This document shows positions 8,494-14,023 of a DNA stretch of 64,000 nt, in pieces. The translations under genes and the position numbers were made by a program. This DNA comes from a virus (lineage: Duplodnaviria; Caudoviricetes): the IMG/VR virus record IMGVR_UViG_3300034073_003276; one strand, written 5' to 3'. How positions within the stretch are numbered: the stretch's first letter is position 1; the number at the start of each line of letters is the position of its first letter. The notes under the pieces are model-generated. The model searched no databases and had not been told where the DNA came from. It saw only the letters and a list, made by a program, of their open reading frames with translations.

Positions 8494-9072
8494 TTAATCT
8501 TCCTCTATATAAAAAATATCTGGATAATTTCCACTTTTTGCCCTATACCTCAATTGTCTTAAGGTTAAACCTTTTGCCCCACCATTTCTAAAACATTTGG
8601 AAGAATCTTCCCATATTATACCGTAAACCGATATTTTTTTTGAGTTGTAATTACTTACAGATTTTTTTATCTCACTTATCAAAGAAGCAGTTTCTGTAGA
8701 ATTAATTTTTCCAAGTTTATTCAGTAAGATGCTCTGCTCCCTTTTCTTTTGTTTATATTCTTCAGATTGATGCGATTGTTTCCATTTTTCAGATTTCAAT
8801 CTTGCCTCCGTTAGTTTTTCACTATCCCTTTTACATCGACTAACTTGATCTTCATAAATTTTAGTTAATTCTTCATCGGATAAATTTCCACCAAGAAGTT
8901 GAAAAGCATATAAATCAGATATATTTTTATATACTAACCAACGACGATAATGGACTTCTTGGTGAAGTTTTCTTGGAAGTTTAACTAAATTACTTGAATC
9001 GTCAGTGCCCCCTTCATGTTTCGGAATAATGTGGTGTGTGTCTATAAACATATATATATGGTTAGTAACCAT
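8494..9072 (-). mobile_element. Free-standing HNH homing endonuclease (start may be ATG 9051)
   Basis: HHIIPKHEGGTDDSSNLVKL...H motif; AT-rich; between uvsX and the oxygenase; GATAAATA at 9076-9083. Confidence 0.85.
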
Positions 9073-9074
9073 AC

Positions 9075-10091
9075 TTATTTATCATTCTTTAGTCCATATG
9101 AAAATTCCTTTTTAGCAATTTCGTCAAGTTTTTTCATTACATCATCAGTAAAATATTCTTCAGGATTTCTTAGAATCTCCTTACCGTAAATTTTCTTACC
9201 ATTGATTTCATATCTACCAGCAACATTTTTCCAAAGACCACCAATTTCACCAAGTTCAAGCAGACCATAATATCTATCCAGACCTCTTTCATCATAATAA
9301 AGACGCACTTCAACATCTTTATTTTCTTTACTTAAACGGGATTTGTGAGTTTTTGCCTTTACTATATTTCCAACAATTTCAGTCCCATCCTTTTCCTTCT
9401 TCTTGCTTAGGAAAATAATTGTAGAAGCAGCATACTTTAATCCAGATCCTCCAGATTGCTCTTGAGTTGGCACATAAGCACCGACAACTTGATATACATG
9501 ATTAGTGACAATCATAGGAATATTTGCTTGCCCCAGTTTTAGCGTAAGCATACGGAAAGCACCTTTAACAAGTTGCGATTTAGTCATATCACGCACCTGC
9601 TTATCATTCAATGCATCAGTAATTTCCTTTTCAGTTGAAAGCATACCCAAAGAGTCTAGAACAAACATACAAGGTTTACGTTCCTCTACTGGTTTTTTCA
9701 TATACAGATCAACTGCCTTGAGTGCTTTGCCACGAAACTCTTCAATAGTGACAACATTTACTACAACAAGTCGTTGTGTATCAACACCACGACTTTCTAA
9801 AAGAGATTTAGTGACAGCAGCCTCAGTGTCAAAGTAGAGACAGTAACCATCGGGATTAGTATCAAGAAAATTCTTAACCACTGCGAGAGAGAAAAAAGTC
9901 TTTCCAGTAGAAGACTCTCCAGCAATAGCAGTAATCTTATTCCCAGATACACCACCAAATATACTACCTGAAACCAGTGCATTAAAAATGTATGAACCAG
10001 TATCAACATAAGTTTCTGTCTCATCAATATCGGAAGCGAGTTTGGTATACTCCCCACCAACCTCCTTTACAATTTCTTTAAGAAAATCCAT
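9075..10091 (-). CDS. uvsX: RecA-like recombinase
   Basis: GESSTGKT, FDTE, LDSLG, SGLKYAAS motifs; ATG at 10091. Confidence 0.96.
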   Translation of the reverse strand: MDFLKEIVKEVGGEYTKLASDIDETETYVDTGSYIFNALVSGSIFGGVSGNKITAIAGESSTGKTFFSLAVVKNFLDTNPDGYCLYFDTEAAVTKSLLESRGVDTQRLVVVNVVTIEEFRGKALKAVDLYMKKPVEERKPCMFVLDSLGMLSTEKEITDALNDKQVRDMTKSQLVKGAFRMLTLKLGQANIPMIVTNHVYQVVGAYVPTQEQSGGSGLKYAASTIIFLSKKKEKDGTEIVGNIVKAKTHKSRLSKENKDVEVRLYYDERGLDRYYGLLELGEIGGLWKNVAGRYEINGKKIYGKEILRNPEEYFTDDVMKKLDEIAKKEFSYGLKNDK

Positions 10092-10228
10092 CACTTTTTC
10101 TCCTGAGTTTGTTTATCTGCATAATTCATTTTAAAGGTCCAAAGTTTCTGATATAGTGCAGTATCTCCACCAAGACGCATTGCATTAATAATTGTATTCA
10201 GTTCTCGCTCATTAATAGGTAATTCCAT
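10091..10228 (-). CDS. Small hypothetical protein (45 aa, MELPINEREL...), not in ORF track
   Basis: Hand-translated; TGATG overlaps at both ends between the polymerase and uvsX. Confidence 0.75.
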   Translation of the reverse strand: MELPINERELNTIINAMRLGGDTALYQKLWTFKMNYADKQTQEKK

Positions 10229-11394
10229 CAGGTAAAAAATAATTCTAGGTTAACAGTTTTTTCTACATTCCATCCAATCGAATCGAGAATGGACTTCAAG
10301 GGTTCTACAAAACTCTTTTCAAATTGTAATTCATAATCAATGTATTTGTCAAGACCAAGTTCCTTTGGAAAATCTTGAATGAATGAAATGATATTCTCTT
10401 GAATGATATTTGGTTTTTTCAAATATATAAACTTAATTTTTTCTCCATTACCAATCAATGAATACTTATTAGTTAATTTTTTCTCTTTTATATAATGATT
10501 AAAAAGAAGTGCTCCACGAATATGGATTGGTGTTTTTTGAGCATAGATTGTGGAAGAAGAATAATACTTACGCACATCAGAAGCAGTTCTTGGAAAGGCA
10601 ATTTGCTCTGGTGGAAGTCTTTTAAATTCCTCCCGACACTTATCAATAAAATTAATCACATCTTCTTCAGTACCATTCATCATCAACTTTAGACCATCTT
10701 TAATCATTTGACGACAAGGTGCTGGAGTAGAAGATTTAACTGCTTCAATACCCATCATTTTCAGTTTAGGTTCTTCATATCGTACACCCTCACTGTCCCA
10801 TACATTGAGAATGTATCGTTTCTTAGCAGTCCAGATTCCACGCTCAGCAATATTCTCACGCTTCATCTGCATCTTCTGATCGTAAGCATTTACATACTCA
10901 GCCAATTCTTCGTAGCAACCTTCAATATACTTTTCAAGTTCCACCTTACAGACCTTATCAAGGAACGAAACAATGCTTTGAGTAGTTTTCTCTCTTCCTT
11001 TGAATATACATTCAACCAAAGGACCCATATTGAGATAGATAGAATCAGTATCTGAAGCAATAACATAATCAATATCCTCCGTTTTAAGAACTTTATTTAA
11101 ATAAGAATTCATCTTATTTTCAATCCAGCGAATAGAAACCTGTCCTGACAAAGTAATTGCTTCAGCATTCGCTAGTTTATAATAACGGAAATACTGATTA
11201 CCAATGGCACCATAGGCAGAGTTAAGTTGAATCTTCCTTGCCATTTGAATATTGTTGCAGCGTGAGATTTCTTTTTCAGCAGAATTTCTTAGTTTAATTA
11301 ACTCTTTATCTGAAAGATTTTTATATTTGTTATCAGAAGAAACAACAATTTCTTTTTGTTTCTCCTCCTTGTTACCACCAATTAAGTAACCCAT
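10228..11394 (-). CDS. gp43B: DNA polymerase B, C-terminal subunit (gp43B)
   Basis: KIQLNSAYG (motif B), SDTDS (motif C), KKRY, GIEAVKSSTP, clamp-binding tail LELFF. Confidence 0.93.
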   Translation of the reverse strand: MGYLIGGNKEEKQKEIVVSSDNKYKNLSDKELIKLRNSAEKEISRCNNIQMARKIQLNSAYGAIGNQYFRYYKLANAEAITLSGQVSIRWIENKMNSYLNKVLKTEDIDYVIASDTDSIYLNMGPLVECIFKGREKTTQSIVSFLDKVCKVELEKYIEGCYEELAEYVNAYDQKMQMKRENIAERGIWTAKKRYILNVWDSEGVRYEEPKLKMMGIEAVKSSTPAPCRQMIKDGLKLMMNGTEEDVINFIDKCREEFKRLPPEQIAFPRTASDVRKYYSSSTIYAQKTPIHIRGALLFNHYIKEKKLTNKYSLIGNGEKIKFIYLKKPNIIQENIISFIQDFPKELGLDKYIDYELQFEKSFVEPLKSILDSIGWNVEKTVNLELFFT

Positions 11395-12863
11395 TACAGA
11401 ATGCCTCTACGCTTCATTTCTTCTTCAACATCGACTAGTTGTTGTTTTGCTGCCAACATTTTTTTCTTATAAACTGTGCGATCTTTATAGATTTTTTCCA
11501 TTAACTCTGGAAGAAATCCACGCACATCTTTGCGATACATTGCACCATTAGCGCATACTGCATAGTCTTTATACATCTCAAAAGTAATTTCTTGATTAAG
11601 AATTCTATCCACTGTTGCAGTTGGATGTCTATCATCAGTGAGAGTCTCAGGACTAATGTTATACATCATCATAAGGTGTGGATATAGAGAATTCAAGTCA
11701 AAACTTACAACCCAATCATACTTTCCGGGAATTGGTTCTTTTACATAAGCACCAGCATACTTAGAATCTTTCTCAGACTTTTCTTTGGGAGGAATTACAA
11801 TATTTCTCTTCTTGAGATAATTGTAAATGATAGTGTCCCACATTCTAACCTGAGAAAATACATCAGCATAGTTTGCCTTAGCATCATATGCCATCGTAAT
11901 TGCCAACTCAATCAGTTTCATCTTGTCTTCCAGGCGGTCAACAAGTTCCACGTCAATAATGTTGTATTCCACAAACTTTTGCCAACCCTTAGTATAGAAG
12001 TCTTTAAAAGTATCAAACTCAGAGTGGTCTAGTTTTTTCTGTCCCAACTCTACACTTGCAATGTAATCAAGTCGATAAGATTCTTGTGCCTTGTAGGTGA
12101 ATTTCTTATAGAGATTAAGATAATCAAGTTGAGTAATACCACCCACATCATAAGAAATATGTTTACGACCAGCAATATATGTTTCCCTTTCAGTCACAAG
12201 ACCCCAAGGAGACATACGCTTCATCAACTTTTCACCAAGAATTCTATCAATTCTACGCACAAGATATGGAATATCATACAATTCACTATTCCATCCAGTC
12301 ACAACCTCTGGAGTATTTGTTTCGATCATCCACCAGTTAATGAAATCATCTAACAATTCACGCTCAGTTCTAAATCCCTTGTAGATGACATTATCCTGTT
12401 TGTTTGTAAATGGACCTTTACCCCAAGTGCGAATCTGTTTAGAAGAATAATCCTGAATAGTGATCAACAATACTTCTTCTGCTGCAGACTCTACATCAGG
12501 GAATCCATTTTCAGATGCCACCTCAATATCCAAAGTTGTAATCTTAACTTTGTTAGTATCGAATTTGATTTCTTCTTCTGGATAGTTTTCTGAAATATAT
12601 TGGTAGATATATCCAGTGTTTCCGTAGATTTTAAAGTTTTCTACACCCTCATATTTTTTAATAAATTCACGACAGTCTCTAACACATCCTGGTTGGACTG
12701 CTTCAACATATTCACCTTCTAGAGTTTGATATTTAGTTTTTTTATTAGAGGGAACAAAAAGAGTCGGGTCAAACTTCTCACGGGTCATAAAGTGTTTACC
12801 ATCTTCATAACCACGGACCAAGAAGTGGTCCCCGACCATTTGCACGTTTGTGTAGAATCTCAT
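11394..12863 (-). CDS. gp43A: DNA polymerase B, N-terminal subunit (gp43A: exonuclease plus motif A)
   Basis: LDIE, GWNSELYDIPY, YNIIDV exonuclease motifs and SFDLNSLYP motif A; ends in TAA overlapping the ATG of gp43B. Confidence 0.93.
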   Translation of the reverse strand: MRFYTNVQMVGDHFLVRGYEDGKHFMTREKFDPTLFVPSNKKTKYQTLEGEYVEAVQPGCVRDCREFIKKYEGVENFKIYGNTGYIYQYISENYPEEEIKFDTNKVKITTLDIEVASENGFPDVESAAEEVLLITIQDYSSKQIRTWGKGPFTNKQDNVIYKGFRTERELLDDFINWWMIETNTPEVVTGWNSELYDIPYLVRRIDRILGEKLMKRMSPWGLVTERETYIAGRKHISYDVGGITQLDYLNLYKKFTYKAQESYRLDYIASVELGQKKLDHSEFDTFKDFYTKGWQKFVEYNIIDVELVDRLEDKMKLIELAITMAYDAKANYADVFSQVRMWDTIIYNYLKKRNIVIPPKEKSEKDSKYAGAYVKEPIPGKYDWVVSFDLNSLYPHLMMMYNISPETLTDDRHPTATVDRILNQEITFEMYKDYAVCANGAMYRKDVRGFLPELMEKIYKDRTVYKKKMLAAKQQLVDVEEEMKRRGIL

Positions 12864-13506: not shown

Positions 13507-13947
13507 TTATAGATAATCCTTACGAGCATGGTGCTCTGGCACTACTTTCCCAAGTACGATCCGTAGAAGTCCGTCTTCGAATACAACCTCCCTGACTTCT
13601 GTGTCGTCGGATAGAGTCCACGCTCGTTTAAAACTTCTGCTAGCCACTCCCTTGTGGATAAACGTCCTATCCGATTCGGCATCTGCTTTTTGTCCTTCGA
13701 CAAAAAGTTTTCCATACTCTGTGTATACATTTACCTCTCCTTTTTTGAATCCTGCAAGTGCTAATTCGAGATGAGATTCAACATTATTTATTTGAACTAA
13801 GTTATAAGGAGGATAGTTCGTTGTAGTTTCATGAAGATTGAATAAACGATCAAAGTATTCGTCCATTCCAATACTATTGCGAGTGATTCTTTCCATCAAA
13901 GCAGGAAGATCGGACGCAGTAAACCGTGATGTTGCAAGGTTAGTCAT
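13507..13947 (-). CDS. hsp20: Small heat shock protein (Hsp20/alpha-crystallin)
   Basis: YPPYN, LALAGF, FEDGLLRI motifs; AGGAG RBS before ATG 13947. Confidence 0.95.
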   Translation of the reverse strand: MTNLATSRFTASDLPALMERITRNSIGMDEYFDRLFNLHETTTNYPPYNLVQINNVESHLELALAGFKKGEVNVYTEYGKLFVEGQKADAESDRTFIHKGVASRSFKRAWTLSDDTEVREVVFEDGLLRIVLGKVVPEHHARKDYL

Positions 13948-14023
13948 TATTGTAGCTCCTTTAAAAGCGAGTTTGTGTTTTGTGGACCCTTTCGGCATCC
14001 GTATATAATTATAATACTTTTAT

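Follow-up and report, generated by a model that had tools for sequence, protein, structure and literature searches.

Known bicistronic gp43 genes and the window locus

Bicistronic versions of the family-B DNA polymerase gp43 (43A/43B) were described by Petrov, Karam and co-workers in the Aeromonas phages 44RR2.8t, 31 and 25 (PMC2988022). In phage 25, the proteins made from the split genes 43A and 43B purify together and show DNA polymerase activity, and the gap between its two genes holds a seg-type endonuclease gene, whereas the gap of 44RR is a short spacer only (PMC2988022). As for cyanophages, a 2024 paper reported split polymerases only in cyanopodoviruses, whose enzyme belongs to family A, and our search of the literature for a split gp43 in cyanomyoviruses, including Synechococcus phage ACG-2014f, returned nothing specific. 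Here we analyse the gp43 locus in a 64,000-nucleotide (nt) stretch of viral DNA, IMGVR_UViG_3300034073_003276, the whole of which is called the window below. This locus, from a T4-like (Kyanoviridae-like) cyanophage, very probably encodes a replicative DNA polymerase of family B that genuinely consists of two subunits. Its gp43 belongs to the known bicistronic class, and the GenBank records of ACG-2014f already show two gp43 genes.

Upon re-reading of the sequence, the two open reading frames (ORFs), their motifs and the overlap of the gp43A stop codon with the gp43B start codon were found as a first-pass annotation of this DNA had described them (Table 1). The first cistron carries the exonuclease motifs Exo I (LDIEV, residues 111-115), Exo II (190-200) and Exo III (300-308) together with polymerase motif A (FDLNSLYP, 388-395), and the next one carries motif B (KIQLNSAYG, 54-62), motif C (ASDTDS, 113-118) and the thumb. 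The catalytic aspartates are thus distributed over two chains, motif A being in gp43A and motif C in gp43B. In agreement with this, the Pfam domains DNA_pol_B_exo1 and the first third of DNA_pol_B (profile positions 18-144) match gp43A, and the DNA_pol_B match continues in gp43B from profile positions 137-268 onward.

As in the Aeromonas genes, the break in the window gene falls at the tip of the fingers domain, after motif A and before motif B. Split genes had been named in the first-pass annotation for 44RR-type phages and for Acinetobacter phage 133; we compared the sequences, and in a multiple alignment the breaks of 44RR (43A end ...KKMMLAAIRNQEAIKKILASRGVKLDH, 43B start MELELFRDFNEEELTYLNTLSTDELQQMIARC) and phage 133 (43A end ...KKKMITAEQNAEVIKSILARRKK, 43B start MELNYGIKFNEDEIAYLETCTDEELKRIL) coincide with that of the window. 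The chains are of nearly equal size (498/391 residues in Aeromonas, 489/388 in the window), both A tails stop at one aligned position and are basic there (R-G/K), the second fingers helix opens with LS..EL, and there is no intein. Unlike the window, where the two genes overlap in the sequence TAATG, 44RR has a 49-nt untranslated spacer; its B head reads MELELF... instead of MGYLIGG..., its overall identity to the window protein is only about 37-40%, and the Aeromonas phages are Straboviridae, a family distinct from the cyanophage group of the window. Phage 25 has a group I intron in its 43B, and none was seen in the window gp43 with Rfam. Phage 133 has the same break site (its A ends with ...ILARRKK and its B starts with MELNYG...TDEELKRIL), but its two genes are separated by ~2.9 kb of DNA that holds eight ORFs. 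What goes beyond the textbook case is an empty and apparently TAATG-coupled form of the gene, a conserved tail and GYLIGG head, split fingers of T4 length versus short intact ones, and the presence of both alleles in one sample.

Extra residues and fingers length

The closest cultured phage, Synechococcus phage S-SRM01 (83.7% nt identity), has a single 833-residue gp43. When the window gene is set against those of S-SRM01 and P-SSM2, KQQ is followed by a structured insertion. It consists of the 14-residue A tail (LVDVEEEMKRRGIL), the stop/start overlap, the 21-residue B head (MGYLIGGNKEEKQKEIVVSSD) and the seven residues IKLRNSA, and it amounts to ~44 extra residues relative to S-SRM01. Extra residues at a break in the fingers tip, where intact cyanophage gp43 has a short connector, had been noticed earlier; this comparison bears them out, and alignment with gp43 of RB69 bears out the position of the break. 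gp43A can be aligned with RB69 gp43 up to residue 496 (A476), and gp43B from residue 528 of RB69 (B22) or from residue 513 of T4 (B12). The 13 + 21 window residues that are left unaligned face 31 residues of RB69 (about 497-527), whose fingers we take to span residues ~469-572. Hence, the split form has fingers of T4/RB69 length, and intact cyanophage gp43 is shorter by ~45 residues at the fingers tip. A view of the extra residues as a new appendage had to be given up, as they bring the fingers to about the T4/RB69 length.

The window stretch is present in 20 public runs from 11 studies. Logan contigs from four of these studies (runs X4, X5, X6 and X8, X4 sharing its study with the possible source sample) span the junction; they show 0 differences there, and no indel is listed. 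In the freshwater run X6, a second contig has 45 other letters in place of 179 junction nt (window 11277-11457) and represents an intact short-connector allele. The contig depths in X6 are 8.4 for the split allele and 29.2 for the intact one, and the remaining gp43 sequence of the two is similar.

We compared the A tail and the B head of eight split alleles. The rate of synonymous substitution (dS) was saturated in most pairs, the rate of nonsynonymous substitution (dN) was 0.03-0.43, and the dN/dS ratio of the extra residues was 0.01-0.25 in the pairs with a computable dS. The GYLIGG sequence is unchanged through synonymous codon changes. Such a pattern indicates that the extra residues are translated and constrained.

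Predicted assembly of gp43A and gp43B

A complex prediction for gp43A and gp43B gave an interface score (ipSAE) of 0.85 in three runs versus 0.00 for the best of three controls; the mark applied to this score is reached by 51 of 78 solved complexes and by 2 of 108 mismatched pairs. The runs agreed in at least 93% of the contacts, and the predicted local distance difference test value (pLDDT) of the partner was at least 85. The predicted palm contacts are between A 379-405 and B 111-124 and 167-192, and those of the fingers helices are between A 451-488 and B 22-64, with A 475-488 touching B 22-44. An AlphaFold2 model of gp43B alone has a helix at residues 29-65, whereas residues 1-19 are without confident structure. 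Of the added helices, which had earlier been proposed as a dimer interface, the prediction packs only the A tail and B 22-44 against each other.

In an assembly of this kind, the two chains would fold into an ordinary family-B polymerase with a shared palm sheet, to which gp43A would supply the motif A aspartate and gp43B the motif C aspartates, and the long antiparallel helices of the fingers would pack together with the A tail on B 22-44. From the co-purification and activity of the phage 25 products we infer, by analogy, that gp43A and gp43B assemble and act as a DNA polymerase. Several points nevertheless weigh against too firm a view of the two-subunit enzyme. Its junction is backed by contigs and not by raw reads, and a two-chain enzyme in this phage is predicted from sequence. 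The complex prediction supports binding of A to B, but its score may stem from the model's memory of the contiguous T4 and RB69 structures: as both gp43 proteins were solved as single chains, the result may come from likeness to them and is no proof of binding. Finally, residues 1-19 of gp43B, which include the invariant GYLIGG, have no confident predicted structure.

Table 1. Features of the split gp43 locus in the window and form of the junction in the eight related split loci
Feature	Position	Strand	Description
gp43A	11394..12863	minus	489 residues; N-terminal domain, 3'-5' exonuclease Exo I-III, palm part with motif A, first fingers helix, 14-residue tail
gp43B	10228..11394	minus	388 residues; 21-residue head, second fingers helix with motif B, palm with motif C DTDS, thumb, C-terminal tail
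A tail LVDVEEEMKRRGIL	11397..11438	minus	gp43A residues 476-489; not in intact cyanophage gp43; predicted extension of first fingers helix, touching B 22-44
TAATG	11392..11396	minus	gp43A stop TAA (11394-11396) overlaps gp43B start ATG (11392-11394)
GAGG, Shine-Dalgarno-like	11404..11407	minus	9 nt before gp43B ATG; within codons of the conserved A-tail RRG; read from sequence
B head MGYLIGGNKEEKQKEIVVSSD	11332..11394	minus	gp43B residues 1-21; not in intact cyanophage gp43; GYLIGG invariant in cassette type
gp43B residues 22-48 NKYKNLSDKELIKLRNSAEKEISRCNN	11251..11331	minus	opening of second fingers helix; homologous to the short connector found in intact gp43, with a 7-residue insert in addition
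7-residue insert IKLRNSA	11278-11298	minus	within gp43B residues 22-48
L009, L029			gp43A end ...LVDIEEEMKRRGIL, TAATG, gp43B start MGYLIGGNKEE...
L027, L028, L030			gp43A end ...LVDIEAEMK(K/R)RGL(S/K), TAATG, gp43B start MGYLIGGNKEE...
L032			tail and head as in window type; ~520 nt between them
L062			gp43B part only
L065			break position as in window; different head MELDYSKISTDEL...; ~660 nt between halves

Distribution of the split

IMG/VR was scanned with gp43B, and the frames of 80 fetched loci were read. The fingers-tip split is found in 8 of the 80 (Table 1). Five of these loci (L009 and L027-L030) share the A tail, the B head and the TAATG overlap with the window at ~80% amino acid identity, and the pattern of this cassette is LVD[IV]E.EMK.RG for the A tail and GYLIGG for the B head. 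A search with the first 60 residues of gp43B returned at least 41 clusters (90% identity) of 386-388-residue proteins that share the head of the window protein and come from JGI, ENA, Logan and NCBI. One of their members lies in a 92.9-kb contig with adjacent A (489 residues) and B (388 residues) genes and the same synteny as the window: regA, hsp20, two DUF6561 genes, A, B, uvsX, a 2OG-Fe(II) oxygenase gene, gp41 and mazG.

In a phage collection, Synechococcus phage ACG-2014f (genus Atlauavirus) has 45 genome records in which the B head finds a match. We opened three of these records, and in GenBank each has two coding sequences named 'gp43 DNA polymerase' with two small ORFs (52 and 71 residues) of unknown function between them. 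The cassette is the same as in the window (the 491-residue A ends with ...LVDIEAEMK(K/R)RGVL, and the B head reads IGYLIGG...), but the two genes are separated by the small ORFs, and the B-head identity to the window is only 49-58%. As cultured ACG-2014f propagates with this arrangement, the split enzyme works. The junction that the first-pass annotation had suggested looking for in relatives thus exists both in IMG/VR loci and in ACG-2014f, and its reading of the split as natural agrees with the indel-free contigs of four studies, the 41 or more clusters and the ACG-2014f records. Its inference of an independent or transferred split in a cyanophage lineage needs correction in that the split is no single event of one lineage: the same cassette is present in the 45 ACG-2014f records and in many metagenomic phages, and the break site is shared with 44RR and phage 133. 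With tblastn, the B head also hit eight Rhizobium phages (E about 0.8), but in an unrelated hypothetical protein, and this match was discarded as due to chance.

In ACG-2014f (L083-L085, ~2474-2520) and in L032 (~2328-2380), GYLIGG is preceded by ATT or ATC with GAGG or GGAGG 5 nt upstream, and no ATG, GTG or TTG occurs from the upstream in-frame stop to GYLIGG. The gp43B genes of ACG-2014f and L032 probably start at this non-canonical ATT/ATC codon. The 43B starts given in GenBank for ACG-2014f are farther downstream, in two different places depending on the record, and omit the conserved head. The annotation of 43B is inconsistent among these records.

We also carried out an exhaustive HMMER search of 1.84 billion representatives and considered the best 150 matches (representatives at 50% identity). 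About 12 of these 150 are gp43B proteins of 360-381 residues that start at the break site of the window with M(D/N)L..LS..EL. In the contig of one of them (P0087 type), a 492-residue A is followed by two ORFs (131 and 123 residues), a 364-residue B, uvsX and gp41, while the contiguous relative P0169 reads ...NVKMELENLSNEELL... at the break spot. Judging from these proteins and this contig, the fingers-tip break is widespread in T4-like phages, and the window represents the version found in cyanophages, whose B head is longer and distinctive.

Although split gp43 has been regarded as a peculiarity of a handful of phages of Aeromonas and Acinetobacter, in cyanophages, cultured ones included, it is common and long-lived, and split alleles coexist with intact short-fingered alleles in the same waters. 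They form a natural system for studying how a replicative polymerase copes with a break in its fingers domain, which closes on the incoming nucleotide, and how homing endonucleases and cargo genes use the fingers-tip site. There is also a practical side to this, as the gp43 gene (g43) is a marker gene of cyanomyoviruses: primers and length filters will miss or truncate its split alleles.

Gap contents and possible origin of the split

The gap between the two halves is empty in the window, L009 and L027-L030. Relatives L032 and L065 have a free-standing homing endonuclease gene in it, as phage 25 does: a 151-residue HNH endonuclease in L032 (phrog_374, E 9e-60) and a 224-residue homing endonuclease in L065 (phrog_655, E 4e-26). 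The gap ORFs of ACG-2014f and of the P0087-type contig have no match to a family of known function. The situation resembles that of the fractured split-intein genes (Dassa et al. 2009, PMC2677866) and of the mobE-split nrdA of phage Aeh1, in which an essential gene of replication or nucleotide metabolism is broken where relatives hold homing endonuclease genes and the halves must reassemble. Unlike the fractured genes, the window has neither intein halves nor an endonuclease gene in the gap.

A quick, unrooted tree of gp43 (69-70 rows) was built with the junction columns removed. On this rest-of-gene tree the split state requires at least 4-5 changes, which are forced by well-supported branches. 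A constraint that keeps all split rows in one group lowers the log-likelihood by 508 units (p = 5e-6 in the approximately unbiased (AU) test), and one that keeps the GYLIGG type alone together lowers it by 171 units (p = 0.006); these groups were named with the tree already in view. The gene is mosaic: over gene positions 1801-1950 the window is 57% identical in nt to L009 and 89% identical to L027. The divergence of the cassette is about that of the gene, with ~75% nt identity between the window and L009.

The discordance of the split state with the rest-of-gene tree points to exchange with intact alleles by recombination. By a narrow balance of the evidence, we prefer to see the fingers tip as a permissive site that is used by homing endonuclease genes and small ORFs, and the window as the empty form of an old cyanophage cassette that has traded places with intact short-fingered alleles through homologous recombination. 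There are observations that speak against our preference. The gap of the window has no endonuclease gene. No tract of co-conversion was seen near the cassette in a sliding identity profile, and the flanks lie no nearer to other split alleles than to intact ones, so no recent homing tract is visible. In addition, the mosaic structure of gp43 weakens the tree, and the AU groups were post hoc.

The empty gap, the missing co-conversion tract and a cassette as divergent as the rest of the gene would also fit a history in which the split long-fingered form is ancestral and vertically inherited, intact short-fingered alleles have replaced it several times, and endonucleases have played no part in this lineage. 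The T4/RB69 length of the split fingers agrees with such a history as well. We regard it as possible but doubtful, for endonuclease genes sit exactly in the gap of relatives, the split and intact alleles found together in X6 have the chance to be exchanged either way, and the tree, unrooted and of a mosaic gene, gives no direction of change.

It is unlikely that the split arose separately in cyanophages and merely converged on the permissive loop used in 44RR and phage 133, with no cassette inherited or transferred. The variety of the B heads (MGYLIGG... in the window, MEL... in 44RR, phage 133 and L065, and MDL..LS..EL in others), the low overall identity to 44RR gp43 and the location of the break in a surface loop tolerant of breaks are what such convergence would produce. 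On the other hand, the A tails end at one aligned position with similar basic ends (RRGIL, SRGVKLDH, ARRKK and KRKIDLNTL), the LS..EL start of the second helix is held in common, and the GYLIGG cassette is clearly one homologous element across incongruent cyanophage backbones.

A further reading, which we consider improbable, would make the fingers tip a conserved landing site and let the split cassette move between backbones, its head and tail serving as a docking module for hybrid polymerases in co-infection or tuning the dynamics or fidelity of the fingers. The incongruence of cassette and backbone, the co-occurrence of alleles in X6 and an invariant GYLIGG with no assigned role are compatible with it.

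Other breaks in gp43 were seen in related loci. A second split site in cyanophage-like gp43 was observed in L019 (844-2121, 2166-2693 and 2650 onward) and L046, just past motif A (...DLNSLYPHLIMQYAISPETLITQDELNRRIAELESML, followed by the stop). The gap of this type holds a 175-residue ORF with weak GIY-YIG and helix-turn-helix matches, and the half downstream of it is extended by a new N-terminal stretch. Locus L055 (1-1600) starts with a decayed 43A tail of the L065 type and fragments of an L065-type endonuclease, and continues with a second copy of gp43, partial and beginning at motif A, that has a frameshift ahead of motif B. Either split and intact alleles were joined here in a chimeric assembly, or the locus is decaying.

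Translation across the junction

The junction reads ...AAG CGT AGA GGC ATT CTG TAA TGG..., and the TAATG overlap recurs in L009 and L027-L030. Purine-rich counterparts of the GAGG element are present in L009, L027, L029 and L030. Translation of the two genes is probably coupled, as far as their sequence can tell. The 43A and 43B genes would be on a single transcript, with no terminator between them, and ribosomes ending gp43A at TAA would restart at the overlapping ATG with the aid of the GAGG upstream. Such coupling would favour matching amounts of the two chains. A scan for promoters and terminators between gp43A and gp43B gave nothing informative, and in RNA runs only ~4% of the sampled words of the stretch were present.

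The overlap, with gp43B in the -1 frame, and the fractured phage genes with split inteins that marine metagenomes yield (PMC2677866) bring to mind a single polypeptide made by programmed frameshifting or bypassing, by split-intein trans-splicing or by RNA splicing; we hold this to be very improbable. Read upstream, the gp43B frame meets a TAG after five codons and has just 4 open codons ahead of the ATG, and no slippery heptamer (X XXY YYZ) was found in the 15 nt inspected. In ACG-2014f, L032, L065 and the P0087-type contig the halves are 350-800 nt apart with ORFs between them. The closed frame and these distances exclude a frameshift fusion, which the first-pass annotation had likewise considered unlikely. 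The extra stretches (14 and 21 residues) are far below the size of an intein half, Pfam finds no intein domain at the gp43 halves and Rfam no intron at the window gp43, which excludes inteins and introns. A review of the Aeromonas work also treats 43A and 43B as distinct polypeptides that need reassembly (PMC2988022).

That an assembly or sequencing frameshift or a recent mutation broke a single gp43 ORF and left a dead gene is hardly credible, because even though S-SRM01 and most cyanophages carry one ORF of 830-840 residues and the related contig L081 does appear frameshifted, the difference here is a structured ~130-nt insert with its own stop and start rather than an indel, the junction is identical in the contigs of four studies, the arrangement is kept at ~80% identity and in cultured ACG-2014f, and both halves and the extra residues are under purifying selection. 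In L081 (~2100-2270), gp43 has the short connector and a frame change shortly ahead of motif B; probably the gene is broken or was misread in sequencing.

Neighbouring genes

The locus is embedded in a replication module of the T4-like type, with uvsX at 9075-10094 and hsp20 at 13507-13998, and the synteny agrees with S-SRM01 and L089. The window also contains a free-standing HNH homing endonuclease gene (8494-9072, minus strand; phrog_655, E 3e-12) directly downstream of uvsX. A tie between this gene and the split was considered and rejected: it has only the HNH motif in common with the gap endonuclease of L065 (E 4e-4), and an 84% identical gene occupies the same place in S-SRM01, whose gp43 is intact. 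The interval between gp43B and uvsX is filled by a 45-residue ORF (10091-10228, minus strand; phrog_38428, unknown function) that overlaps its neighbours at both ends, and small ORFs are found at the matching position in S-SRM01 and P-SSM2.

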